DNA from: Trypanosoma brucei
Lineage: Eukaryota
Length of the DNA: 64,000 bases
Assembly (NCBI GenBank): GCA_000002445.1
Contig: CP000067.1
Span: 384,001-448,000, forward strand
Reading direction: 5' to 3'
The translations under genes and the position numbers were made by a program. Shown piece by piece: positions 1 to 43,120 of the stretch. Position 1 is the first letter of the stretch, and every line of letters begins with the position of its first letter. The notes under the pieces were generated by a model. That model was not told the DNA's origin. It searched no databases and was given only the letters and a program-made list of their open reading frames with translations.

Positions 1-3000
1 CCTTGTTTGGTATTCCTCATTCGTTAGTTTCGCCTGCAGCTTGGCTTCCAGCTCCTGCGACTCCTGCGCTCGCTGCGATGCATCCATGGCAATAAGTGCC
101 ATGATACCGATCCCTCTATCGGAGTCCGCATCTGCCCACTGCTCAGGATGTGCGACATCTTCTTCTTCCACCATAGGCAGGCCATCCACCGCTTTGAGGA
201 TACGCTCCTTCTGAGAGTCGGTTAGCGACACGTTGGCAATGTGCTCTGGGTCAAGGTGGGGATGGGCACGAATGAGGTCCATTAGTGCTTGGAAGCCTTG
301 AACACCGCGGGAGAGTTTCGAGAAAAGGTCGTCAAATGCCGCCGGTTCATTAAAACGTGGTCCTGCGTCTCTGCCAGTTCCTACCCATGTTTTGCCATCT
401 TCATCCGTCACTTCGACGACGGTAAAGTGCTGCACGAACGACCCGCTGCGACGGTTTAAGTGCCGCACAAGTGGTGGTTGTAGTCCGAAGCAGACAGTGA
501 AGAGCTCGATAATACGGACCTTACCTTCATGAGAAAAGTCCTTGGACACCGGGTCCCAGTTCCCAAGGGACTTTTTACTCACCCGTGCAGTGCGGCGTAA
601 CACCGGAGCTTCCTCATCGAGCACTGCCGCAGGATCGACAAGATTAACTTTATCAACCACCTCTGCTTTAATCTGTTTCTCAAATTCAGCGAAATCTGGT
701 TCTACACGGCGCAGCAGCGCAAGGGCGTGCATTGCCGCCTGGCGTTGCGAGGCCTCTTTATTCCACGCTACGCCGCTAGCCCTTAAGTATTCGTGTCCCG
801 GGACCTCGATTGTGGTGAGACAAACTCTGCACGAAATGGGACCCACGGTGCGCGACTTCCAAAACGTCGGATAGTTCACGTTTGCAACATTGCAGTAACG
901 CTGCAACACTGTTTTTGCATCGGGATCGATCGGCATCGATTCAACTTCTGCAAGTGCAGCGTCGTAAGTTTCATCCCCAGTTCGGGGGGTCTTTCCCATC
1001 TCGTAGAAAATATTGTGCTCCCGCATCACATTAATCTCAATGTATCGTTGACATTCTTGAGCATACTGCTCCCAGTCCTGCCGCACATTCGTCGGAGGCG
1101 TCGGGTACTGCGGCTTCTCTTGCGTTGTTCCAAGTGTGAGGGGGAGCGGTGTGGGTGTGTGAGGCGGTTTCGTGGCATTTTCAGAAACGAGAGGCGCCCA
1201 TCGTCCGAGTCGCTTCACGCACTCGACATGCCTCCTTTGCAACATGGGGAGGTTATCGAAGAGACACAGCCCGACTGCATCTAATATCTGCTCTGCGTGC
1301 ATCCAGCATAGTATCTCAGCGTCGCGTTTGGTAAGTGCTGAACCGTGGGCAACCCTCTTTCCGTACACGTCAGGAAGCGGGAGCGTCAGCTCTGCAATGT
1401 GCAACACGTTACCAAGTCCCCGTAATTCCATGCGATATTCCGGCTCAAGCTTCGCTATCCCATTCCGCCTCAAGTAATAGTGCACTCGCGCTCGGGAGAC
1501 GAGGTCCAGGTCTTTCTCAGGTACAAACGTGTACTCCCGTCTTTCTTTGGGGGCAATTAGCGGCTCTTCGTCCTCACGCAGCGCGGACGTCGTTTCCTGG
1601 GAGTTCGCTGGCCCGCCCCCCTTTTGTACACTTATTGCTGCTCGTCTGCGTTTGGACTTGTTTTCCCAATGAATGGACCCCACTACCTCCCGGCGAAGAG
1701 GCGGAGGTGACGCGGTGGCAGCCGCAACGCTTTCAGAGTACTCAACGGGTGCATTTCGGCCACATTTGGCGCACAACCTGACATGTAGACGTTGCAGGGC
1801 GCTGTCTGTGTAAATGGGGATCCCTAAGGTGTCCAATATTAATTCCGCATGCATGGCCGCGAGGTTTTCCGCATCTTTCGGGTCAACTGCTTCACCTAAC
1901 GCGATGCGGTCGCCGAAGCGACGTGGTACGGGCAAATTCACGGCACACCGACAGATTGCCTGTCCCCCATTGTCCTCGGCCTCAATACGCTGAACAAAAA
2001 AAACCTCCTCTATTCGCCGCCCCACGGAGGCCAAATAGTTTTTGATGCGACTCTTAGAACCAAGGTCTACCTGACGAGGAGAGTACAGTGCTTGCTCGAA
2101 CTGCGTGCGCGTTTCTGGATCCGTGGGTGATACCATGATGTAGCCGTCCGGGCTATCCGGCTCCAGATTCCACAACTCCTTTGAAACTGTCTCCCGCATC
2201 TTGAGGTAACTTGTCGCTTCGTCTGAATCTGAATTAGCCGCATCTTTTTCTTCGGTCGGCTGCGCATCGGCCACTCGGGCCCTCTTAGCCACCCTCCGTT
2301 TGGTGTTTTGCGGGGCGGTAGGATCCGATGTACCGACATCCGGTGCGGCAGCAACGCTCCTCGCATTCGTTGAGGAAGATGGAGTTTGAGTAGAGGAATT
2401 TCCTGTAGCGACCCGCCGCCTCCCTGAGGGGCTTAACACATTGGGGTCTCGTGTGTCTGCTGGTACACTCTCACCGCGGGCCCTGCGCGCGGCAATCCAC
2501 TCGGCGCGCGCCGTACTTCCATCCATGAGGTGAAACCCAAGTATATTTAAGACGTCTATGGCATGCATGGCCGCTAAAACACGTGCATCCGTTGCATTCA
2601 TGGCTATGCCGACGCCACCCCGTATGCCATACAAATCGGGTAAGGGTAGCACCACAGTGGCCTTGTAATACCCGTTTACCTCCTCAACCAAAAAGGGATC
2701 GGTCCTCGGAACATTTTCTCTCTGCAGAAACTGTTTCAGCTGTTCCACCGCCGACGAGTCGAGGGTCGGTGTCTCTATAAATTCGCACGTTTGGTCCGTC
2801 AGTGCGCGGTGCCGTCGAATGATATCCTCTTCGTAACTTATGCATGAAATGCGGTCTTCGCGCCGTACTGCCAGCTGTTTAAGTGGTAGGGGGCAGACAA
2901 CATGTGAGGGGTTCTTCTGATCTTCTCCTGGCAATGGGGCGGGCCGCCCGTAGCTCCAGGCTGCCAGCGCATGCTGCTTCTGTTTTGTGGAGTCGGAAGG

Positions 3001-4008
3001 ATAGAGACATATGGAGTGGGCATCGAGGACAAGCTCCGCGTGCATGCAGGCGAGTGTCACGGCAGCTTCGCGATTTAGCGCCTTTCCTTGCGCTTTGATT
3101 TCACTAAATGTTGATAACTCAGGTGGTAAGGAGACGGTGGCTACATACCAGGACTGACCACCACCTTCCCCTGGTTCCTCCACCGACGTGCAGAGCTGAG
3201 CAAAGGAAAGCTTGTGCTCATCCAAAAATGATTTAATGCGGTGAACTGCTGTTGTGTCAAACAAACACGGCGACAGTAATGTGTGACTGGGAGAGATGTA
3301 ATGGTTCGGCCGCATGTCAATTAAAAGCCATTTACCACCCTCGGTCTCGTCACGATCAACAATACGGCGGAGTGGAAGGGGTACGCGGACAGGCGATTGG
3401 GTCCTCTCAAGTTCGTCTGGCAAGGGGGCCCACCGGCCTGCCTTCCGAGCAGCCTCCGCATGTTTCCGTTGCATTGACGGCAGCGTGTAAATGTGATAGC
3501 CGAACTCGTCAATTATGTGCTCAGCATGCATTGCTGCAAGGAGTTCAGCGTCTTTACTATTGCACGCAACGCCATGAGCCCACAGTTCCCCTGTGTGGCT
3601 CCGAAAAGGTAGTCGAACACGGCTATGGTAGAGTGGCGTACCATTGTCGTTAACGATCTCTCGGCCCTCAAAAACTTCACTGCTACTGGTAACTGCTCCT
3701 TGGGAGAAACGTTTGATGAAACTGACTACCCGAGCACGGGAAAATGTGTCCACGTGCTTTGTGTCTTTAAAGCATTCCGGAAACTCACTGCTACCGTCAA
3801 AGGAGAAATCTTCCTTCCTAGTCTCCCCAAACGCCCTGTCTGACTCGTCAGTGGCTTCCACAAGGGAAACCTCGCCGGGGGTAATTTCCTGCGTTTGAAA
3901 CAGTCGCACCGGAAGCACCACGGGGCTCAGTGTGACAGACCGGAAAGGCCCTAGGTAGCGACACGCAACAGTTAGTCGTATGGCCCGCATAATATCCCCC
4001 TTCTGCAT
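1..4008 (-). CDS. Partial CDS (start codon present, 3' end runs off window start; 1336 codons visible). It encodes a mitochondrial-presequence protein with six tandem dsRNA-binding-domain (dsRBD) modules. Probably the N-terminal non-helicase half of a REH2-like mitochondrial DExH RNA-editing helicase.
   Basis: I manually translated the reverse complement from the ATG at 4008..4006 (MQKGDIMRAIRLTVACRYLGPFRSV...) and found no in-frame stop down to nt 1. The frame ends on a complete codon (...SQELEAKLQAKLTNEEYQTR). The ORF track lacks it only because no stop lies in the window. The N-terminus is Arg-rich and amphipathic. The dsRBD alpha2 signature recurs six times (KDAELLAAMHAEHIIDEFG, AAVTLACMHAELVLDAH, TDARVLAAMHAIDVLNILG, KDAENLAAMHAELILDTLG, KRDAEILCWMHAEQILDAVG, ASQRQAAMHALALLRRV). 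Each is preceded by alpha1-beta1-beta2-beta3 elements such as LPLPDVYGKRVAHGSALT. The REH2 assignment rests on recollection of gene order, not on a search. Confidence 0.75.
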   Translation of the reverse strand, partial: MQKGDIMRAIRLTVACRYLGPFRSVTLSPVVLPVRLFQTQEITPGEVSLVEATDESDRAFGETRKEDFSFDGSSEFPECFKDTKHVDTFSRARVVSFIKRFSQGAVTSSSEVFEGREIVNDNGTPLYHSRVRLPFRSHTGELWAHGVACNSKDAELLAAMHAEHIIDEFGYHIYTLPSMQRKHAEAARKAGRWAPLPDELERTQSPVRVPLPLRRIVDRDETEGGKWLLIDMRPNHYISPSHTLLSPCLFDTTAVHRIKSFLDEHKLSFAQLCTSVEEPGEGGGQSWYVATVSLPPELSTFSEIKAQGKALNREAAVTLACMHAELVLDAHSICLYPSDSTKQKQHALAAWSYGRPAPLPGEDQKNPSHVVCPLPLKQLAVRREDRISCISYEEDIIRRHRALTDQTCEFIETPTLDSSAVEQLKQFLQRENVPRTDPFLVEEVNGYYKATVVLPLPDLYGIRGGVGIAMNATDARVLAAMHAIDVLNILGFHLMDGSTARAEWIAARRARGESVPADTRDPNVLSPSGRRRVATGNSSTQTPSSSTNARSVAAAPDVGTSDPTAPQNTKRRVAKRARVADAQPTEEKDAANSDSDEATSYLKMRETVSKELWNLEPDSPDGYIMVSPTDPETRTQFEQALYSPRQVDLGSKSRIKNYLASVGRRIEEVFFVQRIEAEDNGGQAICRCAVNLPVPRRFGDRIALGEAVDPKDAENLAAMHAELILDTLGIPIYTDSALQRLHVRLCAKCGRNAPVEYSESVAAATASPPPLRREVVGSIHWENKSKRRRAAISVQKGGGPANSQETTSALREDEEPLIAPKERREYTFVPEKDLDLVSRARVHYYLRRNGIAKLEPEYRMELRGLGNVLHIAELTLPLPDVYGKRVAHGSALTKRDAEILCWMHAEQILDAVGLCLFDNLPMLQRRHVECVKRLGRWAPLVSENATKPPHTPTPLPLTLGTTQEKPQYPTPPTNVRQDWEQYAQECQRYIEINVMREHNIFYEMGKTPRTGDETYDAALAEVESMPIDPDAKTVLQRYCNVANVNYPTFWKSRTVGPISCRVCLTTIEVPGHEYLRASGVAWNKEASQRQAAMHALALLRRVEPDFAEFEKQIKAEVVDKVNLVDPAAVLDEEAPVLRRTARVSKKSLGNWDPVSKDFSHEGKVRIIELFTVCFGLQPPLVRHLNRRSGSFVQHFTVVEVTDEDGKTWVGTGRDAGPRFNEPAAFDDLFSKLSRGVQGFQALMDLIRAHPHLDPEHIANVSLTDSQKERILKAVDGLPMVEEEDVAHPEQWADADSDRGIGIMALIAMDASQRAQESQELEAKLQAKLTNEEYQTR

Positions 4009-4958
4009 ACATTATTCGAAGATGTCGGTAAAAGCACGCGGAAAAAAATGCTACATGAAATCAAAACTGATCAGAATGTTCAACAAGACATGGATCAGCT
4101 ACCAACACAGCCGCACATCACGTCGGCAGCAATAACAAACTAACACACGTTAGGACACACAATGTTAGAAGCACACGCAGAAGCAAAAAAGTAAAGGAAT
4201 AATAAAGAAAACAGGGAGCCAGGCATCCCCAAGATGACAATACGATCCATGGCGATCACGGGCACGGGGGCGAATTTCCACTCCACCCCCGCCCCACACG
4301 ATACCTCCATTTACGACCGCTGCGGAGGGGCCCAAGTGTACCGCGTGTCCACGGCTGCAGTCACACTTTGGTCCAGTAAAACCATTTAAGGTTTACCCCT
4401 TCCCAACAATATAACAAGTATTCACTAACTTCACCCCCTCCCTTCCTTTTTTTTTCGGGGAAAGGAACGAGAGAGAGAGAGAGCTGCCTAATTAGTACCG
4501 CGAGTCGTTCCCCCCTCCCGAAGCACCCTTCTCTTGCGATACCGTGTTTTACCTCGTCTTTTATTTTTCCCTTATTCCAATATTGGGGTCCCATTTATCA
4601 AGCACACCTTATGCACGCGCAGTGATATGCGCGCTAGGGGAAAAAAATATCATCATCCCCATTGGACGGACGTGCGCTAATTTCACCCGGCCACGGCTCC
4701 GGAAGAGTTCCATGCGTGAGTCTTCGGCAGCACCTCAGTAATCAACCAGTTCGAAAAGGAGACGACTGTTGTCGCCATCTTTCCTTCTTTCCACATGTAT
4801 TTATGTGCGTGCACGCGTTTGAGTCCTGCACAGCGCCGTGGGGATGTGACCACCCGGTTTTTCACTTGGTGAGACACGATACCAAATGATTCAAAAAAGA
4901 AAAACCAGCGCGGGGTCTGGGCAGTGATCACAATTAGCATGCACGTTCAGGCCACAAC

Positions 4959-7900
4959 TCACTTCATCCGCGCGTTGGACAAAATGTAAGTGTCCAATAG
5001 GCGTATAAGGTAGATTGGAATCACAATCGCAAGAGAAATCACAAACACTTGCCACGCACAGCTCCACGAAAATAAATAATCTTGATCAATCATGTCTGGA
5101 AGAAGCAAAACTGCCAATAGAAAAGTGACAATCGAGAAGCATTCGGCTGCCACAAAGTAGTAAAGGTGCTTTCGGCGCTGTGTCCACAGGATTCTGAGAT
5201 GCAGAGTGCCCGCTACAATGACGAGTTCGGTCAGAAGCAGTGTTGTGTACGCCACAGTTGTGATCTGAAACATTTCCTTACCAAATAGAGCAAGAGCAAG
5301 ATATATCATCGTGCCGCCCTGGAACACAGAGATCCACAACCACTGCAGGTACGAGCGCGTATTCATTGACCGGGACTTCAATAGTTCTTTGTACAATTGT
5401 GGAAATTCACGAACATCACCTTCCTTCACATCCTCATCGAGGACCAAGGCAAACACAGGAGCCATCGTAAAAATGGTGGAATATCCCATAAGAAGATACC
5501 CATTGAAGACGGACATGGAGGTGCCAGCGAAAAGTAGCGAATAAAAGGCCTGCACAACTGAATAGGCCATACCTCTGTGTATCACGAACTGGCTCATATT
5601 GCACGTGCGTCGGTAAGAGCTTCGACCATGCCACATAATGAGTCGCACGCAGTGTGAAAACTTTGCAATGGAGAAGTCCGCCGCCATACTGGCCTGCTTT
5701 CCTTCAACGCCTTCAACACCAATGCCCACATCCGCAGCAAGTATCATCCCTACGTCGTTTCCACCATCACCAATGGCCGCTGTGCGTATGTTCCTCGATG
5801 TAAACTTTTTCATAGTCCGTACAACCTCTGCTTTTTGCGTAGGAGAGCAGCGGGATACGATGACAGAGTAGGCTAATCGTGCCACCCGCACAAAGGTTTT
5901 TGATGTGGCTTTGGTGAGACACATGGAGAGGCGACCGCCATCCAACACAAGCGTCCAAGGTACGTCGAGAGGTGCATCGTTCATCGAATTATAGTATTGA
6001 AGATAGAGGGAATCCAAATATCTCTGAGTTTCCTCCTCAGTGCGGCATGACATCACCTCGATCTTGCCGTGCCGTGGAATCAGACGAGTGGCTCGGCCAA
6101 TTGTAATCGCCGTTTCCACCTTGTCTCCCGTCAGAACCCACACTTTGATGCCACCCATTCCCAGTGTCTCGAGCGATGTAGTAACATCGTCCTGTAGTTC
6201 ATCTTCCACGCCTGTCACACCAATCAGTTTCATATCGCGTTCAATAAGAGCCATGGCCGCGTCCAGTAAACTGTCCCGTGCCTCGCTCAAGTCCGCATTT
6301 GCCTCATCGTACCGCGCGAGGAAAGTGTCCACTTGTTCCTTTGTCAGCTGCCGTTGGGCAAAGACGAGCGTTCGAAGGCCAACCTGTGCAAACTCTTGGC
6401 AACTCTCCTCTAGCCAACTGGAAGATCTAACCACAGAGGTCATCTTAAAGTCCGCGCCCTTCATGAAATATTTGTACACACCGTCAGAATTTGCTCCGCA
6501 TGAAACGCTCTCGCTGTCAACCTTTTCACGCAGAATGATTCCCATGCACTTGCGCTCAGAGGTAAATGGGAACGTTTTGATTATGTCATAATGTACCAAC
6601 CTCCCACCCGGTGTGGTAAACTGCATGCAGGTGACGTCCCGGTGGGTGAGGGTGACGCCCAGCGACCTGCAGAAGTTGACAAAGGCGACTTCATCCGGCG
6701 AAGATGCCTGATACTGAAGGCAACCATCTTCCACCACCGGCGTTACGTTGTGGCACAGGACAAGAGAGACAATGGCCTCACCAACCGAGGTCACGTCCCG
6801 TGTGAAGTTTCGCTGCGTCGAGTGACTGTTTATTTTACCGCTGTCCACTGTATTGGTCCCTCTGGGAACATAATTCTCCCCAAAGTACGCGGCTATGCTG
6901 CTCTGGAAGCGATCTACTTCGTGGTAATTCAGCACCGTATCACTGCCCACCTGGATAAAGCGAAAGTTCATGATGTTCTTCGTCAGTGTCCCAGTCTTAT
7001 CAGCGAAAAGATACTGCAGCCTCCCAAGTTCCTCCGGTATGTTTGTGTTACGCGCAACTGTGCCGGGTATTTTGTCATCTTTCCCAATAACATACGCATA
7101 CCAAATACGTCCCACATCCACGTTCACCCGCATAGAAATGGGTATTATGCTCGACAGAAGAATGAGGAACCGGAAGAACATAGTCAGCCAACTTCCCTCG
7201 AAGTGCTGTTGCACCACAAGCAGAAACGATATCAGTACCAACACAGAAAGACACAACACACCGAGGTAATTTAGTTCATGCTCAATGAGTCCAACCTTTG
7301 TGGAGTGCTTGGAACGGTTCATTGCGCTGCGTGTATCGACCCCTGTATGCAGCACAGCGACGGCAAGTGTGCCTGAGGCCACCACGCAGTGGGCCCAAAG
7401 TGTATTTTGCAATGAGATAGCCTCTGACTCTTTCCCGGGGATGTCAAACGCGCCAACAAACTTGTAGATATCCTTGTGCAGGGGTTCGCATCGTATGTTC
7501 GCCCGCAACTGGCTGAGAGAAACATTATTGAGTGTCTGAGTCCCCTTCAGCGCGTAACGTAACTTCCAGTCGGTCTCACCATCCATCTGGTCGGTTCGAA
7601 TGAAACACGTCCCGCATGCCTCGGATGTTCGAAGCAACACACAATCAGCGGGGATGCGCTGTCCATGGTGCAGAATAAGTATATCTCCCACCTGGATCTC
7701 GGCCGCAGTTATGACGCTAACTTCACCATTGAGCAGCAGCTTTTCCACTTTCTCCTCGTTGATTGTTTTGTCTCTTTGATAACGCTGGATGTCGTCCACT
7801 GCATCCTTAATGAGCGAGAGAATCACCACCAATGCGAGTGGAGAGATGTACGTGAAAAGGAAACCAACCTTCAACGCATCCACAAACTGTGTAAGGGTTA

Positions 7901-8285
7901 GGAACAAATAGAAGCTGTTGAAGAACGGCCTAAACTGGTGGAACAGAGAGAGTGGCAAGAAGGTGATAATGGAGTACCGGCGGTTATTGACCGCATTCCG
8001 AGGATAGCCTGCCGCAGTCCAAACATGCGGCGCACACCCCAGGGGAATTGTTCGTGGTTCGCCCTCGCATGCTGTCTCCATGTTGAGCCATCGCTTGATG
8101 ACCATCCGCTGGCTGCGCTTTTTGATTGGTGGAACCGGGCATGGTGTTACCTCTTCCATTGTACTCATGGAACAACAGCTATCGTTCTCTACTTCTGGCA
8201 TTGGTATGTCTTCACCATTGTATTTAGGAAGATGCGCACCAACAGGGTATGATACCCGACCATATTGTGAAAGAAAAACAAACAA
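4959..8285 (-). CDS. P4-type ATPase, phospholipid-transporting flippase (aminophospholipid translocase family)
   Basis: 1108 aa. It has the P-type phosphorylation motif DKTGTLT, the hinge motif GDGGNDVGMI and a TGDK nucleotide-binding motif. About 10 predicted TM helices sit in the P4 arrangement with a large cytoplasmic loop. Called from the ORF track. Confidence 0.9.
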   Translation of the reverse strand: MFVFLSQYGRVSYPVGAHLPKYNGEDIPMPEVENDSCCSMSTMEEVTPCPVPPIKKRSQRMVIKRWLNMETACEGEPRTIPLGCAPHVWTAAGYPRNAVNNRRYSIITFLPLSLFHQFRPFFNSFYLFLTLTQFVDALKVGFLFTYISPLALVVILSLIKDAVDDIQRYQRDKTINEEKVEKLLLNGEVSVITAAEIQVGDILILHHGQRIPADCVLLRTSEACGTCFIRTDQMDGETDWKLRYALKGTQTLNNVSLSQLRANIRCEPLHKDIYKFVGAFDIPGKESEAISLQNTLWAHCVVASGTLAVAVLHTGVDTRSAMNRSKHSTKVGLIEHELNYLGVLCLSVLVLISFLLVVQQHFEGSWLTMFFRFLILLSSIIPISMRVNVDVGRIWYAYVIGKDDKIPGTVARNTNIPEELGRLQYLFADKTGTLTKNIMNFRFIQVGSDTVLNYHEVDRFQSSIAAYFGENYVPRGTNTVDSGKINSHSTQRNFTRDVTSVGEAIVSLVLCHNVTPVVEDGCLQYQASSPDEVAFVNFCRSLGVTLTHRDVTCMQFTTPGGRLVHYDIIKTFPFTSERKCMGIILREKVDSESVSCGANSDGVYKYFMKGADFKMTSVVRSSSWLEESCQEFAQVGLRTLVFAQRQLTKEQVDTFLARYDEANADLSEARDSLLDAAMALIERDMKLIGVTGVEDELQDDVTTSLETLGMGGIKVWVLTGDKVETAITIGRATRLIPRHGKIEVMSCRTEEETQRYLDSLYLQYYNSMNDAPLDVPWTLVLDGGRLSMCLTKATSKTFVRVARLAYSVIVSRCSPTQKAEVVRTMKKFTSRNIRTAAIGDGGNDVGMILAADVGIGVEGVEGKQASMAADFSIAKFSHCVRLIMWHGRSSYRRTCNMSQFVIHRGMAYSVVQAFYSLLFAGTSMSVFNGYLLMGYSTIFTMAPVFALVLDEDVKEGDVREFPQLYKELLKSRSMNTRSYLQWLWISVFQGGTMIYLALALFGKEMFQITTVAYTTLLLTELVIVAGTLHLRILWTQRRKHLYYFVAAECFSIVTFLLAVLLLPDMIDQDYLFSWSCAWQVFVISLAIVIPIYLIRLLDTYILSNARMK

Positions 8286-9394: not shown

Positions 9395-12300
9395 TCACCT
9401 CTGTAAGTGTCTCTTGAACGCCTCTCGCTTCTTCGCCACCGCGTTGCTGTAGGCATCCCGGTACGTTTTGTTCCGCTCATCCGTTATGTCCACCTCCACT
9501 ACCTTGTAGCGGAAATTGAAGGGCACTCGACCTCCCGCCAAATTACTTAGTCGCCTTGCAAGACGATAGCGTTGTTTGTTAGACGCTCCGCGGTTCCTCA
9601 GTTGCTCCAACTCAAGTGGTGCCAGTCTGCGGTGCTTTTTGTGTGCTTCTCCAGGCTCTTTTCTTGATGCGGCAGCGGCCGCGGCGGCCGCTGCCTCTCG
9701 TTCCAACGCGGCGTCAGGGTTTACGGCATCAAATTGCTCAAACAGGGATCCAAGCGTAGACGCTTCAGCCATGCGAACACCAATGGGAACAACGGAGTGC
9801 TCCGACTCGTACATGTCCATTAGTTTCATTTGATCTTGTGCTGATTTCTCCTCATTTTCTGTGAGGTTAACTGGTAGTAGAGCACTGACTGAACCCTCTG
9901 AATTCTTCCCACTATCCTCGTCATCACCAAGCATATCAAGCCATGAAACCCCACCTTCCCGTACCTCCTCTCCACACAGTGTATGTAGATGAGCAGAATC
10001 AGCCGCTTTTACAGATCCCTCTCCCGCACCTGTCACCCGCCGAGGCGCGGCAGGGAAGTTCAACTTGGGCTCAAAGTCCAAACCTACGCATAAATTCGGA
10101 TTGTCATCGACAAGTCCCCCCTCTCCGATCACAGCGCCCTCCGGTGGTTCCGATGACAAGACGTTTACTTGACCTGCGAACAAAGAAGCAACTTCGTCGT
10201 GACGCAAACGTTGTACGAGATGCGCATCGTCCGTGCACAGCACAACGTTGGTTTCTTTTGGGGCAATCGCGCGTACCATTGCCAATACCAGGAGCAGGTG
10301 ATCATTATCAGATCCTGCGCTATCAACTGCACCTGTGACAATTTGGGACAGCAGACATTCACTGAAGTGCAGTACTCTCCGCTTCACATTTCCCTTGTCA
10401 TTAAGTAGAAGGGCGTAGAGGCTGCGCAGTCGCTGTGATGCAATAAACTGATCTTCTTTTCCTACCTCCTGCAGCGCCTCATCGTATGACACTACCTCTC
10501 CGTCTGGCGCATCGAGCACCGAGGATATTTGGCGCAGACAGAAGTAAGGTACTAATACAAGCGAATGTCCTCCATTTTCCTCTTCATTCAACGAGCCTAA
10601 GCCAAGAAAAGCTTCACTGGACTCCACAAAAGAGGAATCCAGCAGATAAATTGTGTGGTATCCGAGCAACTTACGTGCCAGCGAGGTGATATCCGTTGCG
10701 ACCGCGTCACTGGGCGGTAACGCATAGCCATCGAAGTGCTGACAGGAACCCACTAAGCTAATGTCAAGCTTCGGCATATGTTGCGTGATCTCATCCAGTG
10801 CTCTCTCAACCTCCGCCTCACCGGTGCAATTGCGGTAATGCCTCGCAACAGCAATACGGAAGACTTCATCGAAAACCACCACATCTTCAGAGGGATAACT
10901 AACGGCACCCTTCGCCCCAACCAGCAACTCTTGTACCCTCACAGGCCCCAAACCCTCCATGAGAATCCGGTAGAGCTCTACCCCGTTCAGTGCGTTGCGG
11001 TAGTGAAAAAATTCCGCATAGTTGAACTTCCAGTACAGCTCAACCTCCCTCGTTACGTCGTAATCCTCGTCAATTTTACACCTCTCCTCGATACTCTTCA
11101 GTCCCTCCTTCAACAAATTTAACTGTTCCTCGGATGACCCCTCGCTGCGCACAATCATCACCGCCCGCGTTAGGTCTAGAACGCGCAACTTTGCGTTTTC
11201 CATGCGCCGCAACGTGCGAAGCGCTAGTGAGGGTTGAGTGGCCGATAAGGCGACTATTAGATAATGATACAACTCAGCTGTAACACCACCCTCCTCCACA
11301 AGCACTCTACGAAAGGCCACCGCCGCCGGGTCTGCATAGTGACGCCAAATGTCTCGCTCACCCGAGCGATGCTTTGTTGCGCTCGTCTGTTCCTTCTCTG
11401 CTGTGATCCGCTGCCTATACTCATTTACTAGCGCCACAACTCCCTTCACATCGCCGGTCCACGCCGTCCGCTCAAGATCAGCGACGAAACTTGGGTGCAG
11501 AAGCGAGTCGCGAAGGCGTGGCTGAACGAGTGTGGGAGCCTCCCACGGAACTGCTGCTTCCATGTGCGGAAATATGGTGTGGCGACTGACGGTTGGCCAC
11601 GAGGTTGCACCGGGCACAACCTGTGGCGTGTTGGGGAGGTTGTCGATGAACTGGAGGAGTTCCGGTTTGGCAGTGGGCTCAATCCGTAACTTCAGCGCCT
11701 TGAATGCTGCAAAGAGTCCTTCCAACTCCTGTTGCTCCTCGCTGGTGGTTGGTTGAAAGTGTGCCATGGCAGTTTGACCCGTCACATCGTTCTTCACTGG
11801 CGAGCAGTAGCGACCCAAATATGCCTCCCAAACCCCCTCCGTCATATCCTCCGTGATTTCGTCACTTGGTGACGCGGCTGCGATGTGCAACAGCCATGTG
11901 TAGTGTGATAGTGGGAACGATTGACCAGCTTCAACGAGGTACTGCTGCCAGCGGAACGCCGCCGTTACATCTCTGCCCAAGGCGCAAAGTCGAAAGAACT
12001 CCTGATAACTTTCCTTCCCTACCTTGTGGCTGTGTACCATGAACTGAAAGACATGTTGAGCGTACATGTATGCCTTCCTCTTGGGCACTGGCCGCCGCTC
12101 CAGTTGCACAACCGCCGTGCACCATGACAGCAACCTGGCGCAGTGGTAGTCACTCAAGAGGTGACGGTGCTGATGAAGCTTAAAGGCCATGTACCACGGT
12201 CGCGGCTCGCGGTACAACTGTCGTCGTAATGTCTCAAGGTTTTGACTGGCACTCCATGCGCGGAATATGTCCCTGTGGTGCGCCCGAACCTTCACACCGC

Positions 12301-12427
12301 CCCACATAAGTGTATATGTACTTATATACACCGAGCCGCCTGCAACAACCAAAACCAGATAGAGGAAAGTGAAAAAAAAAGGCAGTGGGGAAAATAACCA
12401 TCCCAATTCAGAAACGTAATAAAACAC
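9395..12427 (-). CDS. Large hypothetical protein with helical-repeat (PPR/TPR-like) regions and a poly-Ala tract. Probably a mitochondrial RNA-binding type protein. The called N-terminus is likely over-extended.
   Basis: 1010 aa ORF. It has repeated amphipathic helix pairs (YTWLLHIAAASPSDE, YHYLIVALSATQP, LYRILMEGLGP) and an A9 tract encoded near 9672-9700. The first ~40 codons (MFYYVSELGWLFSPLPFFF...) are hydrophobic low-complexity and overlap a purine-rich-on-plus (polyY on transcript) tract at ~12360-12400. The true start is more likely M41 (ATG 12307) or later. Confidence 0.55.
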   Translation of the reverse strand: MFYYVSELGWLFSPLPFFFTFLYLVLVVAGGSVYISTYTLMWGGVKVRAHHRDIFRAWSASQNLETLRRQLYREPRPWYMAFKLHQHRHLLSDYHCARLLSWCTAVVQLERRPVPKRKAYMYAQHVFQFMVHSHKVGKESYQEFFRLCALGRDVTAAFRWQQYLVEAGQSFPLSHYTWLLHIAAASPSDEITEDMTEGVWEAYLGRYCSPVKNDVTGQTAMAHFQPTTSEEQQELEGLFAAFKALKLRIEPTAKPELLQFIDNLPNTPQVVPGATSWPTVSRHTIFPHMEAAVPWEAPTLVQPRLRDSLLHPSFVADLERTAWTGDVKGVVALVNEYRQRITAEKEQTSATKHRSGERDIWRHYADPAAVAFRRVLVEEGGVTAELYHYLIVALSATQPSLALRTLRRMENAKLRVLDLTRAVMIVRSEGSSEEQLNLLKEGLKSIEERCKIDEDYDVTREVELYWKFNYAEFFHYRNALNGVELYRILMEGLGPVRVQELLVGAKGAVSYPSEDVVVFDEVFRIAVARHYRNCTGEAEVERALDEITQHMPKLDISLVGSCQHFDGYALPPSDAVATDITSLARKLLGYHTIYLLDSSFVESSEAFLGLGSLNEEENGGHSLVLVPYFCLRQISSVLDAPDGEVVSYDEALQEVGKEDQFIASQRLRSLYALLLNDKGNVKRRVLHFSECLLSQIVTGAVDSAGSDNDHLLLVLAMVRAIAPKETNVVLCTDDAHLVQRLRHDEVASLFAGQVNVLSSEPPEGAVIGEGGLVDDNPNLCVGLDFEPKLNFPAAPRRVTGAGEGSVKAADSAHLHTLCGEEVREGGVSWLDMLGDDEDSGKNSEGSVSALLPVNLTENEEKSAQDQMKLMDMYESEHSVVPIGVRMAEASTLGSLFEQFDAVNPDAALEREAAAAAAAAASRKEPGEAHKKHRRLAPLELEQLRNRGASNKQRYRLARRLSNLAGGRVPFNFRYKVVEVDITDERNKTYRDAYSNAVAKKREAFKRHLQR

Positions 12428-14736: not shown

Positions 14737-16263
14737 TCAATTCTTTCCCCTCCTTCGCACTACGATCCACGCCGCCACACCGATGAGGCCGGCCACCATT
14801 GTTGTGACAACGAGTCCAGCCCGACTTACAGACCGCGCGTTAACCGACCCGTCCGCTGGGGGAAGTTCGCCTGCGCTAATCATCTGTTCAATACTCGCAC
14901 GCAATGTCTCCTGCATGGGTGTAAACTTCATGCCCAGCTCAGTCGTTGCTTTGCGCGTGTCCAAGCACTTCCTGACGCCTAACGTACGCCACAGAAAGCG
15001 TATGCTCACCTGTGAATGCGTCGCTCCAATGATGAGTGTCATGAGCGTGTTGGCTGTGCGCGTCGGTGGGGTGAGGTGCGGGTATTCATTTCTGATGAGC
15101 TTCCCAATCTCTGCGAAACTAAAGCACCCGCCGGAGACTATGACCCTCTGATCTTTCACCTCCTGACACTCTAGTGCCCGGACGTGGGCTTCAGCAACAT
15201 CCCGTACGTCCACAAAATTCCAGTGCAAGTTTGGTGCGTATGGGAAGTACGACGAGGCGGTGGCTAAATGTTGTATTCTCTTCATGGCATCACTAACCTC
15301 TTCAGTGCGGCTAGGGCCTATTGTGATGGACGGGAGGATCACCACTAACTCCACCCCCAGCATCTGCTTCAATCTCCATGCTTCCTTCTCAAAATATATA
15401 CGAGCATAAGGAATGGGATCGGTATCGTTTGTTGCGACACTGTTCCAACAGGACTCGTCGAAGGCGCCGGACGGTGGCTCGGGATCCGTGACGTGAAAGA
15501 CGGACGATGCGGCACCGTGTATCACCACTCGCTTTACCGTTGATTTACCAGCCTGCCGAATGGCGTTGAAGAGCGCCTGGACAGCACTTAGGTGAAACTC
15601 AACCGTGTCCTTATCAGTAGAGCTAACGGGACATCCGCAGTGGATGACATACTTGCAACCCCGCAGAGCGTCACGCAGCGAATTTGTATTAGTCATGTCC
15701 GCCTCGAATATAGAAAGTCGTTGCTCGTGGTCGCGACCCACGGAGGAAAGTGCCGCTTGCTGCTGTGGTGTTAGGGCACCACTCCCGGTGATGCGCACGC
15801 TGTAACCTGCCTCAAGCGCCTTGTTGACAACGTGGCTGGACACGTAACCGACACCACCAACAATCAGAACGACTGTCTTGCTTCGGAGGCTTTTGGCGCG
15901 TTCCTTCTCGGTTTCAGATGACAACTGGCTAAGGATTGTCGAAACCGTAGCTCCGGGGGCAATCTTCGGTTGCTGCTGCTGGCCTTGTTGACCTGCGCGG
16001 TGAGGGCTCCCCCGCGTTCCATTTGACAGCGCAACGTCTTCATCGGAGAGAATCTCACCACACGCTGCGTTAAGGTCTAACGTGCTGCCTGAGAACACTT
16101 TATGCAGTGTGTGAGCGCAAGGCTGAGGCCGCACTGGTTGCCCATCCTCGGTGAAATAATCAGCTCCGGGGCCCAGTACATGTGGCTGCTTCACTAAGTT
16201 GAAGTCCCGGACTGTCTCCATATGCTCGAGGGAAAGACAGCTGCCGGAGAATACACGAAGCAT
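14737..16263 (-). CDS. NAD(P)-dependent epimerase/dehydratase (extended SDR, 3beta-HSD / cinnamoyl-CoA-reductase-like) with a C-terminal transmembrane anchor
   Basis: 508 aa. It has the Rossmann motif VVLIVGGVGYVSSHVVNKALEAGYSV (GxxGxxG) and YxxxK-type SDR core features. The C-terminus GLVVTTMVAGLIGVAAWIVVRRRGKN is a TM helix. There is an N-terminal extension of ~130 aa. Confidence 0.7.
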   Translation of the reverse strand: MLRVFSGSCLSLEHMETVRDFNLVKQPHVLGPGADYFTEDGQPVRPQPCAHTLHKVFSGSTLDLNAACGEILSDEDVALSNGTRGSPHRAGQQGQQQQPKIAPGATVSTILSQLSSETEKERAKSLRSKTVVLIVGGVGYVSSHVVNKALEAGYSVRITGSGALTPQQQAALSSVGRDHEQRLSIFEADMTNTNSLRDALRGCKYVIHCGCPVSSTDKDTVEFHLSAVQALFNAIRQAGKSTVKRVVIHGAASSVFHVTDPEPPSGAFDESCWNSVATNDTDPIPYARIYFEKEAWRLKQMLGVELVVILPSITIGPSRTEEVSDAMKRIQHLATASSYFPYAPNLHWNFVDVRDVAEAHVRALECQEVKDQRVIVSGGCFSFAEIGKLIRNEYPHLTPPTRTANTLMTLIIGATHSQVSIRFLWRTLGVRKCLDTRKATTELGMKFTPMQETLRASIEQMISAGELPPADGSVNARSVSRAGLVVTTMVAGLIGVAAWIVVRRRGKN

Positions 16264-30312: not shown

Positions 30313-31773
30313 TTACACAATAATGGACGAGACAAAACTGACGAATCGCGCTGCGTATTCCTTCGGCGGCACCGCCGATATCTTCTGCCTGTCTTTCAAC
30401 ATTCCGAACACAAGGGTTTCCATACTCTTCCGAGAATTGTACTCCTGCAATATGTCAATGATCCCAATATAATATATTTCCCTCCTTCCACCGGGGTGGT
30501 CTGCGCTCATCATACCGCCCTGATCCGCTTTGAAGCACCGCCCGTCGGTTGGTGCGCTGTCGGCAGCCGCGGTTGGATGTCCATTCAAAGCCATGGGTTG
30601 CATCGTCTCACCCATGCCTAACAGATAGGAAGGTTCCAGTGCACTCGTTGCAAGCGCTGCTGCCCCACCCAAGTACTCTCTGCTTCCCGTGCTTGGTGCT
30701 GGGCGATGTGCCTCGTACATGGGAAGCACGTGAATACCTACAAGAAACGAGTAGTCCATGATATTACACTGGTTCAGGAATCCACAGTCCATTTTCATTT
30801 GTTCAATGAGAAGGTTACGCCTAGTGGCGCCCACATGAAGGGGACGATTTATATCCAAATCCTTTTGTGTGCATGTCTGCTTTTTCTTTTCCGCCTCAGT
30901 CGCAAAACGACCGACCGTACTCCCCTTCAGGTCGTATTTTTCATGGATTGTGTTTCCTGTGACGAACACATTCTGCATAATGATAATGTACATCTTCTCT
31001 CCGTTGATTTCAAGCCGGTGGTGACCGACAAAGTGTGGTAGGAGCGTATAAGGATGGTCTAGCACAAAAAAATAGTAGCGATGTAATATGCGCCGTAAGA
31101 ACTTGCTCTCTTCGTGTGTCATGGTCTTGATCACCCAATCCCTACCACAGAAGAATAGTTGCGCGGCGGACTTACCTGGTGTCGGTGTGCTGTGCCAGCG
31201 GCTTCGCAACAGGACATCGCGGTAGGCCCTATGGTCGATATTGAAAAATTCCCGAATGTGACGATAGCACATGGGCGAGTAGTCCACAAATGCTAACGGC
31301 ACATTCGGGACCTCATCGTGGGACTCCACATCACTTTCATCTAAATGACTTGCCTCCTCACTGTCACCATGTGCATCGTAAAAGGGTGCATGGTGGTTAC
31401 GCTGTTCCCTTACACCAGTTGCCGCCGCCGTGCTGCAACAGAAACCTGGCTTAGGTTTTTCTACCCCCACATCCAGATTAATCTTTGTTTTTATGGAGAA
31501 ATCTCGCTTTGGGTTTAGCGGCCGCTGTTTGGCCGGATGGGAGATGCTCGTGATGCTCTGCCCCAACGCCCATTTCATACAGCGTATCAAGTTAATCGTC
31601 GCCTCATTTTGCCTCGGCTCATCTCTTTTATCGCAAGACTTGACTTCGAGGTTCTTTGGCGGTTCCTCCGTAGGAGTGCGACGTGCCGCTATCTCCGCTG
31701 AGGAAAGGGGTCCAGATTCAAAGGAGATGGCGGCAAGTATTTCTCTATTGAACGGCATGGCTCCCCGCGCCAA
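30313..31773 (-). CDS. PIP5K: Phosphatidylinositol-4-phosphate 5-kinase (PIPK family)
   Basis: It has PIPK catalytic-core signatures: MYIIIMQNVF, the G-loop-like DLKGSTVGR, DCGFLNQCNIMDYSFLVGIH (catalytic MDYSLL-type motif) and the activation-loop IYYIGIIDILQEYN. Confidence 0.9.
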   Translation of the reverse strand: MARGAMPFNREILAAISFESGPLSSAEIAARRTPTEEPPKNLEVKSCDKRDEPRQNEATINLIRCMKWALGQSITSISHPAKQRPLNPKRDFSIKTKINLDVGVEKPKPGFCCSTAAATGVREQRNHHAPFYDAHGDSEEASHLDESDVESHDEVPNVPLAFVDYSPMCYRHIREFFNIDHRAYRDVLLRSRWHSTPTPGKSAAQLFFCGRDWVIKTMTHEESKFLRRILHRYYFFVLDHPYTLLPHFVGHHRLEINGEKMYIIIMQNVFVTGNTIHEKYDLKGSTVGRFATEAEKKKQTCTQKDLDINRPLHVGATRRNLLIEQMKMDCGFLNQCNIMDYSFLVGIHVLPMYEAHRPAPSTGSREYLGGAAALATSALEPSYLLGMGETMQPMALNGHPTAAADSAPTDGRCFKADQGGMMSADHPGGRREIYYIGIIDILQEYNSRKSMETLVFGMLKDRQKISAVPPKEYAARFVSFVSSIIV

Positions 31774-32436: not shown

Positions 32437-34647
32437 TCACGATTTGTTTTTCTTTCCGAGCCGAGCTTTCTTGCGGTTTGCACTCCCAGTTCCATATTGC
32501 TGACGCAGCGAGATGGCACCTTCCTTCAGCTCAAGCGGTTTCTGGGTGGGTACATCGATTTCTTCCACTTCATCCTTCACCTCAAGCCCTTCATGGAGAC
32601 ATGGGCCAGCCATTCCTTCTCCTCTTTCGCTGCTGTTTTCCCTTTCGACGGTTGGTTCCTCTGCATCAACATGCACCCGTTTTTCCTCTTCCTCACCCTC
32701 ACCCTTTACCTTCATCTCTTCCACTTCCCGCGCCCGCTTAACCGCAGACATCCGTGTCACCACATCATGACCAGGAAGTGCAATAGGGTAGTAAGGTTTC
32801 CTGCGGAGGATGGCAGCAACATTCCGCATCGTTTCAAACCATGCAGATGGCTCCGTGCGCACCACAACATGCGCGTCTTCTACAGTAAATGCCGGGTCCG
32901 CACGCTGCTCAATTGAAGGGAGTGTGCCGGTCATGGAGCGATGAACACCCATGTATCGCAAAGCAACCCCAACATTTGGTAAGGGTTTGGGTTTTACATC
33001 ACCATTTGCTCCATCTTTTAGGCTATCAGCACTTCCGATAGCATCTTTCACTATCTGGAGCAGCTTCATAACATTTGTGCGCACAGCAACACTTACTGGA
33101 CTACAACACTTAAGCACCTCGTTTGCCGATGTGGGCAGCTTTGTCGCGATAGACAACACGCACGAAATATGCATAACAGCTGAGGGAGAGTCGTCCGCTT
33201 CCCGCGCCGCCATGTCCCGCCAGTTAAATATCTCGCGTGCCACCTGCAGCTGAGATGAAGAAAGACCACCCAAGCTCCTTCCAAGTGCCTGCTTGTATGT
33301 AACATCAGGGTCGAGATGTGGCTTCTCGTAGCGCTCCAGCGATAGAAGGCGGCTCTCTTGAAATACGTGAAGCAGCATGTTTCCAACAGAAGCTCGAGCC
33401 TCGCAATTGAGTAACAACTGCTTCAAGCGATCGTAGACATAGAGCAAGAAGTGTGTATCTTGCTGGGCATAGGAAACCATCTCTGCTGGAATGGGCCGAA
33501 CACGCCAGTCCGCAGTCTGGTACTTTTTGTTGAGTTTCACCTGGCAGAAGTGATCCACCGCGAACGCCAAACTGTGTGGCATGTGCAGATTCTGCAATGC
33601 TATACTTGTGTCAAAGAGGTTCACGATGTACAACCCGAAATCCTTCTGCAGCCACCGAACATCTTCTCGCGCACCATGGAAAACCTTCACAATGTTTGGT
33701 TGCAAGAAAACGGGGGCCATCAGGTACATGTTTGCGCGCACCTTAAGACAGTCAACGATGAAGTCCTGGGTGCGAGTGCTGATCTGCATGAGGCATGTAA
33801 AACCTTGATACGAGTAGAAATCATGGTGCTCCAAGTCGACAGCAATTTCCGTCTCATTCAGCAGCACTGCCACAAGTGCTTCAAGGTCCTCCACCGTATC
33901 GACAAACGTCAGAGGACACGTGACTAGTGAAAGGTAAGGAGTTTCAGTTTTGAGCAGCAGTTGCTCTGAGGGAACAGACACAGCCTTAATCCGTTCCGCA
34001 AAGGGATGAACACCCGGTTCCCCGACGTGACGTACGCCCTTTTCGTCGTAGTAGACTGGACGGAAAGGTGTGGGACTGTTGTCTACCGGATGTTCAAATG
34101 TGAGTTGCGGCCTCAAGACACTTACACCGGCTGCGTTAAAGACAGAATAAGAGGAAGACGGGACCACACCCTGCAATTCTGATCCAAACTTCACGGATAG
34201 TTGATCCTTAGCACTTAAACGTCGCCCCTTTAACTCATCCAACAAACCATCAACATTCTCCAGTAACGAATCCGCAGCTTCCATCACAGCAGCTCGCTGA
34301 GGGTCTGTTAGTTTCCCTCCTGTACTTGAGAGGGTGACACGCCGCTTAGCCGGCAGCAACTGACAGAATTTATCCATCAGGGAAACGACAGCCTCACTGT
34401 GGCGAGTGATTTGATGCCTGAACGCAGGAAAAGCCATATGGTAATCATAGTCTTCCTCCGCGAGATCCGCTGTTAACTTTGTGTATTCCTTCACGAGCGT
34501 AAAGGCTCCGTTCACAAGGTCCTTTGTTTGTGGAAGAGAGCCAGACATATACCCGACTCCTTTTGATAATGTTAGTGGAAGAAATATTTCGGCACGCGCG
34601 TGCCCGCGTGTTTGGAAAAGATGTATGGAAACAAGCATCAAAAGCAT
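32437..34647 (-). CDS. RRP6: Exosome-associated 3'-5' exoribonuclease RRP6 (RNase D family, DEDDy) with an HRDC domain
   Basis: It has an N-terminal PMC2NT-like region. The Exo I motif is IAVDLEHHDFYSYQGFTCLMQIST (DxE). The Exo III motif is YAQQDTHFLLYVYDRL (Y-x3-D). An HRDC-like segment follows (LQVAREIFNWRDMAAREADDSPSAVM). The basic C-terminal tail is KKARLGKKNKS. Confidence 0.9.
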   Translation of the reverse strand: MLLMLVSIHLFQTRGHARAEIFLPLTLSKGVGYMSGSLPQTKDLVNGAFTLVKEYTKLTADLAEEDYDYHMAFPAFRHQITRHSEAVVSLMDKFCQLLPAKRRVTLSSTGGKLTDPQRAAVMEAADSLLENVDGLLDELKGRRLSAKDQLSVKFGSELQGVVPSSSYSVFNAAGVSVLRPQLTFEHPVDNSPTPFRPVYYDEKGVRHVGEPGVHPFAERIKAVSVPSEQLLLKTETPYLSLVTCPLTFVDTVEDLEALVAVLLNETEIAVDLEHHDFYSYQGFTCLMQISTRTQDFIVDCLKVRANMYLMAPVFLQPNIVKVFHGAREDVRWLQKDFGLYIVNLFDTSIALQNLHMPHSLAFAVDHFCQVKLNKKYQTADWRVRPIPAEMVSYAQQDTHFLLYVYDRLKQLLLNCEARASVGNMLLHVFQESRLLSLERYEKPHLDPDVTYKQALGRSLGGLSSSQLQVAREIFNWRDMAAREADDSPSAVMHISCVLSIATKLPTSANEVLKCCSPVSVAVRTNVMKLLQIVKDAIGSADSLKDGANGDVKPKPLPNVGVALRYMGVHRSMTGTLPSIEQRADPAFTVEDAHVVVRTEPSAWFETMRNVAAILRRKPYYPIALPGHDVVTRMSAVKRAREVEEMKVKGEGEEEEKRVHVDAEEPTVERENSSERGEGMAGPCLHEGLEVKDEVEEIDVPTQKPLELKEGAISLRQQYGTGSANRKKARLGKKNKS

Positions 34648-41932: not shown

Positions 41933-43120
41933 TTAGTCATCACCGACCAAAATGCTCTGAACCTTTTCGAATACAACAAACATGGAAGCACTAGCTGGCA
42001 CTGCCTTCAGATAGTTCGCTGATATGCCTGAGAATAGGGATCCTACACCTTTCGTTCTAACCATCTTCACGAAACAGTCAGTCATGCCTTTATATTTCAC
42101 TGCACGTCCGTTGGTGCCCTGCGTTTGCAGTCGGGTCCGCACGACGTTGAGTGGATATGATACCGTTTGTGCAAACATGGAGGCGAACATACTAACGGCA
42201 GCCGTTTCAATGGAGGAAAGAGATGAATCGTGACGGCTCATACCGTAATTATTCATCCTGTACATTATCATCTGCTGCTGTGCAGTAGAATAGATACCGA
42301 CTTCTAATCCGCGGTAGATGAAGATTCCCACCATATTGGGGGTGAGACCACGATAGAAGCCAGAAATTCCACTATTTTTGTACGTGTCATATATCACCTG
42401 CCGCATGCCGCCCGGGTACTCCGACCTCCTCGAAACGGCCATGCGTGTTTTGATTACTTCAAGAGGATACAGCGTAAGCTGCGCACCAAACCCTGCCCAG
42501 GCGCCAATGAGGAAGTTTAGAAGTATGCGCGGAATGCTGGTGAGCGTAAACCAGCGGTTAAGTGGGGCCGGTAACACAGATACCGTAGACAAATCATATG
42601 CAATAGGCTCCGAGCCCGTTGCCTTCATTGCGGCCTCCCACTCCGTTACGCGGGCCGTTTCTTCATCTAAACTGTCCTCGTAAAGCGACAGGAAGTACCG
42701 ACGGAGTGTAAAAACTAAGGCAAACTCCGGACCCGCCTTGAGGCAGTTTACCCCGTTCCCGCGCCAGAAAGCGGACCACCCGCCATCATTCCGAATTAAG
42801 TGAAAGACGTCAATTAGTTGTGCCGGTCTAAGAAGCGACTTTTTTCCAGTGCCACTCACAAGATGACCCTCCTGAACAATAATCTTGATGCGGTCCAAGG
42901 GGGCTGTCAGTGTGCGACTACATGCGCCCGCCACACCACCTGCAACAAAAGTAGCTGCTGTTGTGTACGAGTCTCGCTTCACGTGCATGTGCTGTTCCTT
43001 TGCCTTTTCGTGGCCTACAGTCATAGCTTCCGATCCCGTGATATTTTGAGCACTTGCACCACTACTGCAGTCTGCTACTTCAACCCCCATATGCACGTTT
43101 TCGGTGACGCTTGCGCGCAA
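41933..43120 (-). CDS. Mitochondrial carrier family (SLC25) protein
   Basis: Three carrier signature repeats P-x-[DE]-x-x-[KR] are present: PLDRIKI, PLEVIKTRM and PLNVVRTRL. The tripartite 6-TM layout is recognisable. It is 395 aa with a ~45 aa N-terminal extension. Confidence 0.85.
   Translation of the reverse strand: MRASVTENVHMGVEVADCSSGASAQNITGSEAMTVGHEKAKEQHMHVKRDSYTTAATFVAGGVAGACSRTLTAPLDRIKIIVQEGHLVSGTGKKSLLRPAQLIDVFHLIRNDGGWSAFWRGNGVNCLKAGPEFALVFTLRRYFLSLYEDSLDEETARVTEWEAAMKATGSEPIAYDLSTVSVLPAPLNRWFTLTSIPRILLNFLIGAWAGFGAQLTLYPLEVIKTRMAVSRRSEYPGGMRQVIYDTYKNSGISGFYRGLTPNMVGIFIYRGLEVGIYSTAQQQMIMYRMNNYGMSRHDSSLSSIETAAVSMFASMFAQTVSYPLNVVRTRLQTQGTNGRAVKYKGMTDCFVKMVRTKGVGSLFSGISANYLKAVPASASMFVVFEKVQSILVGDD

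Follow-up and report, generated by a model that had tools for sequence, protein, structure and literature searches.

A 64,000-nucleotide stretch of Trypanosoma brucei DNA (contig CP000067.1, positions 384,001 to 448,000; here called the window) opens with a truncated minus-strand gene. Judged by its sequence, the segment from nucleotide (nt) 1 to nt 3990/4008 is the N-terminal ~1330 residues (~61%) of the mitochondrial RNA editing helicase REH2/KREH2, the Tb927.4.1500 ortholog. The explanation that best fits our results, and one that we consider probable, is that this part of the protein is built of seven units with the fold of the double-stranded RNA-binding domain (dsRBD), comprising five repeats restricted to kinetoplastids (modules 1–5), one domain like those of RNA helicase A (RHA; module 6), and one degenerate unit (module 7), with RNA binding and scaffolding divided among them. 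The REH2C complex governs how faithfully U-insertion/deletion editing proceeds in trypanosome mitochondria and how it is regulated during development; the host has no such pathway. Sorting the RNA-binding from the scaffold dsRBD folds would direct mutagenesis and cryogenic electron microscopy of REH2C. The gene is known and annotated and is as such of low novelty; the additions made here are modest and consist of the non-canonical character of modules 1–5, a likely seventh, degenerate dsRBD, and uncharacterized paralogs that share the array.

An earlier sequence-only reading of this DNA had described an open reading frame (ORF) of 1336 sense codons that starts at ATG 4008 and leaves the window at nt 1 with no stop, and retranslation gave the same result. 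The other two frames of this strand are interrupted by 46 and 71 stops. The ORF is missing from the ORF list because that list omits ORFs that run off the window end. The fragment is ~100% identical, with 100% query coverage and E = 0, to a 2167-amino acid (aa) protein of T. equiperdum named RNA editing associated helicase 2 (P0001), from which it differs at four amino acids, and the REH2 identity suggested in the sequence-only reading is thereby borne out. Orthologs are present in T. grayi, T. cruzi, T. conorhini, T. rangeli, T. vivax, Leishmania, and Leptomonas, with identities of 67–69% in other Trypanosoma species and 35–43% in more distant kinetoplastids. The full-length P0001 protein runs on into the helicase motifs GTTGCGKTT and DEIH and carries PF00270/PF00271. 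The location given in the sequence-only reading also held, as PIP5K and RRP6 genes lie adjacent to each other on the same strand, about ten to twelve genes from REH2.

Homology and predicted fold of the modules

Six "MHA" cores occur at window aa 160, 322, 481, 719, 903, and 1093 (nt 3528, 3042, 2565, 1851, 1299, and 729), spaced by 159–238 aa and all within ~15 nt of the alpha2 core positions proposed in the sequence-only reading. Window residues are numbered from ATG 4008, and annotated numbering is counted from the start at nt 3990. Alignments were based on 15 REH2 orthologs, and the modules were compared as profiles (hhalign). The pairwise profiles of modules 1–5 matched one another with E-values of 1e-10 to 1e-32 across 100–117 columns, and matched that of module 6 with P values of 1e-4 to 4e-6, as compared with P values of at least 0.07 in 28 module-versus-linker control comparisons. 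A repeat hidden Markov model (HMM) made from modules 1–5 alone identified six modules, no more and no fewer, both in the window protein and in each of the complete orthologs, the sixth match being the canonical domain (module 6), which was absent from the training set. The merged profile of modules 1–5 (49 sequences) aligned with the module 6 profile at 96% probability (E = 3e-9) over 76 columns that span the whole region from alpha1 to alpha2. The best solved matches of the module 6 ortholog profile are dsRBD1 of DHX9 (E = 2e-5) and the dsRBDs of MLE (~1e-4).

The sequence-only reading had proposed a segment-by-segment search with Pfam dsrm (PF00035, gathering cut-off 23 bits), and this was borne out for module 6 (40.2 bits), which is the only module to pass when searched singly. 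Modules 1 and 3 stay below the threshold with 16.9 bits (E = 0.01) and 14.9 bits (E = 0.04, profile positions 2–66), respectively, and no dsrm match was obtained for modules 2, 4, 5, and 7. Among the repeat members dsrm is the only Pfam family that recurs (14/49, all sub-threshold). Because a search of the PDB sequences with the merged repeat profile found no solved dsRBD, the fold is established by structure prediction. A PDB sequence search with the whole fragment gave matches to herpesvirus gB only (E ~0.04), which were judged spurious.

The AlphaFold2 (AF2) model of module 1, made with the merged alignment, has a predicted local distance difference test score (pLDDT) of 92 and a predicted template modeling score (pTM) of 0.85, and displays the order alpha1-beta1-beta2-beta3-alpha2 followed by an extra helix, alpha3. 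Foldseek matched this model to MLE, DHX9, Loqs, and Dicer at a probability of ~0.94–1.0. A 1200-residue AF2 model (window aa 75–1274, mean pLDDT 74) has the alpha-beta-beta-beta-alpha order at all six module positions, with per-module pLDDT values of 75–87; the unit occurs seven times in this model, with alpha3 added in modules 1–5, and the best PDB matches are solely multi-dsRBD proteins. Both the topology and the structural likeness to solved dsRBDs are those of the dsRBD fold.

Several points weigh against the seven-unit reading. The Pfam dsrm scores of modules 1–5 and the result of the PDB sequence search have been given above; in addition, the folds of modules 2–7 are taken from one medium-confidence AF2 model (mean pLDDT 74) together with homology to module 1 or 6, and the fold search with an isolated model covered module 1 only. 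The helicase part lies outside the window, and its continuity with the modules is drawn from the near-identical database protein only. A different explanation would be that the "AAMHAE" blocks are not dsRBDs and belong instead to another alpha/beta repeat (e.g. the dsRBD-like subdomain of YcaO or ribosomal proteins) or to a recurring helix motif. This would agree with the lack of a solved dsRBD among the sequence matches of the merged profile, with the modest E-values of the Foldseek matches (4e-3 and weaker), and with the presence of YcaO chains among those matches at a probability of 0.75–0.92. Set against the predicted topology and the likeness to solved dsRBDs, this explanation is hardly credible.

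In the 1200-residue model, a clean alpha-beta-beta-beta-alpha unit with element lengths typical of dsRBDs is positioned between module 6 and the helicase core. This unit, module 7, could be an AlphaFold over-prediction or some other small alpha/beta domain of the helicase N-terminal extension, in which case there would be only six dsRBD folds. Consistent with that possibility, neither Pfam nor the PDB gave a sequence match to module 7, its pLDDT is only ~76, and profiles of 14–15 sequences showed no link between it and the PDB, Pfam, the repeat, or module 6. The predicted topology and element lengths argue against it, as does the comparison of deeper profiles, made with 27–29 helicase-bearing homologs taken from the exhaustive search described below, in which 81 in-register columns of modules 7 and 6 aligned at a P value of 7.5e-5. 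When the columns of the module 6 profile were shuffled 200 times, the scores averaged 10.2 +/- 2.3 and peaked at 21.1, and 0/200 reached the real score of 27.6. In DHX9 and MLE, dsRBD2 sits directly before the helicase core, and the position of module 7 mirrors this arrangement. A count of only six folds therefore seems quite unlikely to us, and module 7 is a probable rather than certain seventh dsRBD-fold unit, as judged from the model and the profile alignment. The sequence-only reading had counted six dsRBD modules; all six have the dsRBD fold, and for the count the evidence favors seven.

An exhaustive search of representatives with the repeat profile returned 163 cluster representatives at E ≤ 1e-3 among 1.84 billion proteins, with generic dsRBD proteins staying outside the matches. 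By these matches the REH2-type repeat is a small, lineage-restricted (kinetoplastid) family. Each module resembles its ortholog from a distant kinetoplastid more than it does the neighboring modules of its own protein, indicating that the array is ancient. The Pfam family PF26536, named "REH2 DRSM" in the source, is precomputed on P0001, on helicase-less paralogs, and on P0034, a 203-aa T. cruzi fragment with module 1 only; the match is at the level of the whole protein and does not give the boundaries of each module. In one kinetoplastid family of ~2000–2300 aa (P0017–P0023, P0025), each of the seven N-terminal modules of REH2 has a counterpart. To test whether these paralogs are degenerate helicases, they were searched with an HMM of the REH2 helicase region, which found no detectable similarity in their C-terminal ~700 aa (independent E-value > 0.9). 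A second family of ~1000–1240 aa (P0027–P0033, P0171–P0174) has four REH2-type repeats and no other Pfam domain. Paralogs with the repeat are not in the PDB and their source names are uninformative ("REH2 DRSM domain-containing protein"), and the searchable literature gave no match for "REH2 DRSM" or PF26536.

RNA-contact residues and proposed function

The core net charges of modules 1–7 are -1, -4, -2, -1, +2, +7, and 0, respectively. The cores of modules 1–4 are acidic, with isoelectric points (pI) of 5.1–6.5, that of module 5 is mildly basic (pI 8.9), and that of module 6 has a pI of 10. The basic character of module 6 is kept across orthologs, and this module retains the first Lys of the alpha2 motif and a fixed four-residue GP loop that is kept in no other module. 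The canonical "type A" signature (GPxH loop, KKxAK, and a basic domain) is thus partly present in module 6 and is absent from modules 1–5, which have neither the GPxH loop nor the KKxAK signature. At the third Lys of KKxAK, modules 1, 4, and 5 have Glu in 15/15, 14/15, and 14/15 orthologs, respectively, and the beta1-beta2 loop of modules 1, 2, and 4 ranges from 0 to 17 residues among orthologs.

Module 6 corresponds to the "dsRBD2" of published work, in which the mutant K1078A/A1086D (window K1084/A1092) loses RNA and RESC association, and unwinding, in pulldowns (PMC6488192, PMC12936278). N-terminal truncations of >1000 residues lower the association with H2F1 and GAP1 by more than "dsRBD2" alone accounts for (PMC6488192). 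Modules 6 and 7 may work like dsRBD1 and dsRBD2 of DHX9 and MLE, with the basic module 6 binding the duplex of guide RNA (gRNA) and mRNA and module 7 possibly positioning RNA at the helicase tunnel or gating the tunnel. Modules 1–5 probably do not grip A-form RNA as canonical dsRBDs do because of their acidic or neutral cores, the invariant Glu in three of them, and their non-canonical beta1-beta2 loop lengths. They more probably form a flexible scaffold, similar to "type B" dsRBDs, for contacts with proteins and ribonucleoproteins (RNPs) such as KH2F1, KH2F2, and RESC, a role that fits the weakened H2F1 and GAP1 association of the truncations beyond the "dsRBD2" effect. Any RNA binding by modules 1–5 would be non-canonical and would involve basic surfaces of alpha1 and alpha3.

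Alternatively, all six or seven modules may be functional dsRNA binders that coat a long gRNA-mRNA duplex through multivalent contacts, much as the sequence-only reading had suggested in proposing extensive dsRNA contacts. Every module has the dsRBD fold, and N-terminal truncations lose RNA-mediated associations. In modules 1, 4, and 5, helix alpha1 has many Arg and Lys residues and alpha3 has a net charge of +2 to +4, making RNA binding possible, and a 2026 review proposes, from AlphaFold3 models, an alignment of dsRBDs with RNA (PMC12936278); these last two observations also count against the division of function preferred here. The acidic cores of modules 1–4, the invariant Glu at the canonical Lys of modules 1, 4, and 5, the variable beta1-beta2 loop of modules 1, 2, and 4, the lack of GPxH, and the sub-threshold dsrm scores all disagree with such coating. 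Moreover, the point mutant of module 6 alone frees REH2 from RNA and RESC, which suggests that the remaining modules cannot hold RNA alone. Binding of duplex along the whole array is therefore unlikely in our view, and extensive dsRNA contacts are disfavored, module 6 being the only one with a strongly positive core.

The preferred reading, with a basic module 6 and an upstream scaffold, may be extended further, although we do so tentatively and with more doubt than confidence. Modules 1–5 could be a kinetoplastid-specific, dsRBD-derived scaffold without canonical duplex binding that organizes protein and RNP contacts instead and is reused in paralogs, with all seven modules in at least one helicase-less family of ~2100 aa and four modules in a family of ~1100 aa. 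If true, the scaffold reading would define an uncharacterized family of mitochondrial RNP scaffold proteins. Separately, module 7 could correspond to dsRBD2 of MLE in cryptic form and gate the tunnel through which REH2 takes RNA.

Layout of the gene and its neighborhood

The positions of the modules and of the other features are given in Table 1. The repeat unit of modules 1–5 is ~115 aa long and consists of the dsRBD core, alpha3 ("Q.KHAEAARKAGR"), and GRxAP. After a further 12–16 residues there follows a P(L/P)PL(R/K) motif, predicted to form a short beta-strand. Module 3 is the most diverged of the five, and module 1 is probably the "dsRBD1" of the 2016 paper discussed below. The beta3-alpha2 junction had been read as G-x-G/A-x-(S/T)K-x-(D/E)AE; the actual consensus is closer to G-x-A-x(2-3)-[KR]-[DE]-A-[E/x]. 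Disordered linkers are predicted in the 1200-residue model at window aa 536–594, 788–824, and 1118–1149. Conserved strands "DETEGGxWxLxD" and "DSPDGYIMV" are observed ahead of modules 2 and 4.

Table 1. Features of the REH2 segment and neighboring genes in the window (aa, window numbering from ATG 4008 unless given as annotated)
Feature	Position (nt)	Strand	Basis or remarks
Truncated ORF, REH2/KREH2 N-terminal ~61%	1..4008	-	no stop; ~100% identity to P0001; DExH core, HA2, and OB fold beyond nt 1
Start codon and predicted mitochondrial leader (annotated aa 1-34)	3889..3990	-	database start, ortholog N-termini
Polypyrimidine-rich tract, then AG dinucleotides, upstream of ORF	4166..4217	-	sequence read; AT-skew shift in the 4001-4500 block
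Module 1, divergent REH2-type dsRBD, alpha1-beta1-beta2-beta3-alpha2 + alpha3 + GRWAP	3412..3765 (aa 82-199)	-	
Module 2, divergent REH2-type dsRBD + alpha3	2920..3276 (aa 245-363)	-	hhalign to modules 1, 4, and 5, E 1e-19 to 3e-27; AF2 alpha-beta-beta-beta-alpha-alpha, pLDDT ~87
Module 3, divergent REH2-type dsRBD + alpha3	2449..2781 (aa 410-520)	-	hhalign E 2e-10 to 9e-17; AF2 pLDDT ~86
Linker, predicted disordered, poorly conserved	2227..2403 (aa 536-594)	-	pLDDT < 50; conservation 0.18-0.27
Module 4, divergent REH2-type dsRBD + alpha3	1735..2085 (aa 642-758)	-	hhalign E down to 1e-32; AF2 pLDDT ~85
Module 5, divergent REH2-type dsRBD + alpha3	1180..1527 (aa 828-943)	-	hhalign E down to 2e-30; AF2 topology
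Module 6, canonical RHA-type dsRBD	703..930 (aa 1027-1102; annotated 1021-1096)	-	Pfam dsrm 40.2 bits, E 5e-10
Module 7, probable degenerate dsRBD-like unit just before helicase core	304..531 (aa 1160-1235; annotated 1154-1229)	-	AF2 alpha-beta-beta-beta-alpha, pLDDT ~76
Helical pre-core region into RecA1	1..303 (aa 1236-1336)	-	AF2 helices; motif I ~30 aa past window edge
P(L/P)PL(R/K) tails	~3364-3372, 2875-2883, 2413-2424, 1690-1698, 1132-1140 (aa 213-215, 376-378, 529-532, 771-773, 957-959)	-	
P4-type phospholipid-translocating ATPase (flippase), next to REH2	4959-8285	-	PhoLip_ATPase_N/C + E1-E2 ATPase domains
NAD-dependent epimerase	14737-16263	-	
PIP5K gene	30313-31773	-	adjacent to RRP6-type gene
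RRP6-type exosome exonuclease gene	32437-34647	-	PMC2NT + 3'-5' exonuclease + HRDC
Mitochondrial carrier	41933-43120	-	
Protein kinase	50137-52389	-	
NDK7-like protein	54498-55547	-	

Translation from ATG 4008 begins with MQKGDIMRAIRL. MRAIRL starts at nt 3990, with the second Met of the frame; this is the start given in the database and agrees with the N-terminus of T. vivax; a further ATG at 4012 is out of frame with the REH2 ORF. The ortholog N-termini favor ATG 3990 over the in-frame ATG 4008 as the start of REH2, as far as these alignments indicate. The sequence-only reading had taken the N-terminus for a mitochondrial presequence, and this stretch is indeed the published predicted leader; the MRAIRL quoted there begins at 3990 and not at 4008. 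The first 34 aa of REH2 are a predicted mitochondrial leader, and truncation constructs that keep those 34 aa are still imported into mitochondria (PMC6488192). By composition, annotated aa 1–34 contain five Arg and no acidic residue. Upstream of the ORF, the polypyrimidine-rich tract and the AG dinucleotides that follow it are likely to be a trans-splicing signal and are treated as a candidate.

The 21 ORFs in the window with a length of 250 aa or more all lie on the minus strand, and on this evidence the window forms one polycistronic cluster of genes in a single direction, as expected for a trypanosomatid. Several of these ORFs have no Pfam match, e.g. 9395–12427 (1010 aa). A GTG-initiated ORF of 163 aa on the plus strand (793–1284), antisense to the module 5/6 region, is presumably a chance frame in GC-rich coding sequence.

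Comparison with known systems

The gene in the window shares with T. brucei REH2/KREH2 (Tb927.4.1500, REH2C complex) the leader, the K1078/A1086 residues of "dsRBD2", and the chromosomal neighbors. In the papers of 2016 and 2019, REH2 is drawn with two dsRBDs, with dsRBD1 near the N-terminus (seen by Phyre2 only) and dsRBD2 beside the core (PMC4987287, PMC6488192). In contrast to these two dsRBDs, the review of February 2026 with AlphaFold3 models names the domain of K1078A/A1086D "dsRBD6" (PMC12936278), a label that agrees with the module count found here. Together with the dedicated Pfam family PF26536, this means that the multi-dsRBD layout is effectively known already, and the six-dsRBD array cannot be presented as the notable refinement that the sequence-only reading had supposed. 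We found nothing in the searchable literature that analyzes the array as such, a seventh domain, or the way in which modules 1–5 depart from canonical dsRBDs.

By the Glu at the position of the canonical Lys, modules 1, 4, and 5 appear to resemble the protein-binding "type B" dsRBDs, such as dsRBD5 of Staufen and dsRBD3 of TRBP/Loquacious. Modules 1–5 differ from these in the extra alpha3, the GRxAP tail, and the invariant MHAE, which are not described for "type B" domains. In the Rnt1p-type dsRBD, a third, C-terminal helix alpha3 packs on the core and supports tetraloop recognition. Modules 1–5 appear to resemble this type in their added alpha3.

DHX9 (RNA helicase A) and Drosophila MLE belong to the same DExH/RHA subfamily as REH2, and their tandem dsRBD1-dsRBD2 before the core is comparable to module 6 and module 7, although module 7 of REH2 is far more degenerate than dsRBD2 of either protein. 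Beyond what is present in DHX9 and MLE, REH2 has five additional divergent dsRBDs with alpha3 upstream, a mitochondrial leader, and the zinc-finger cofactor KH2F1.

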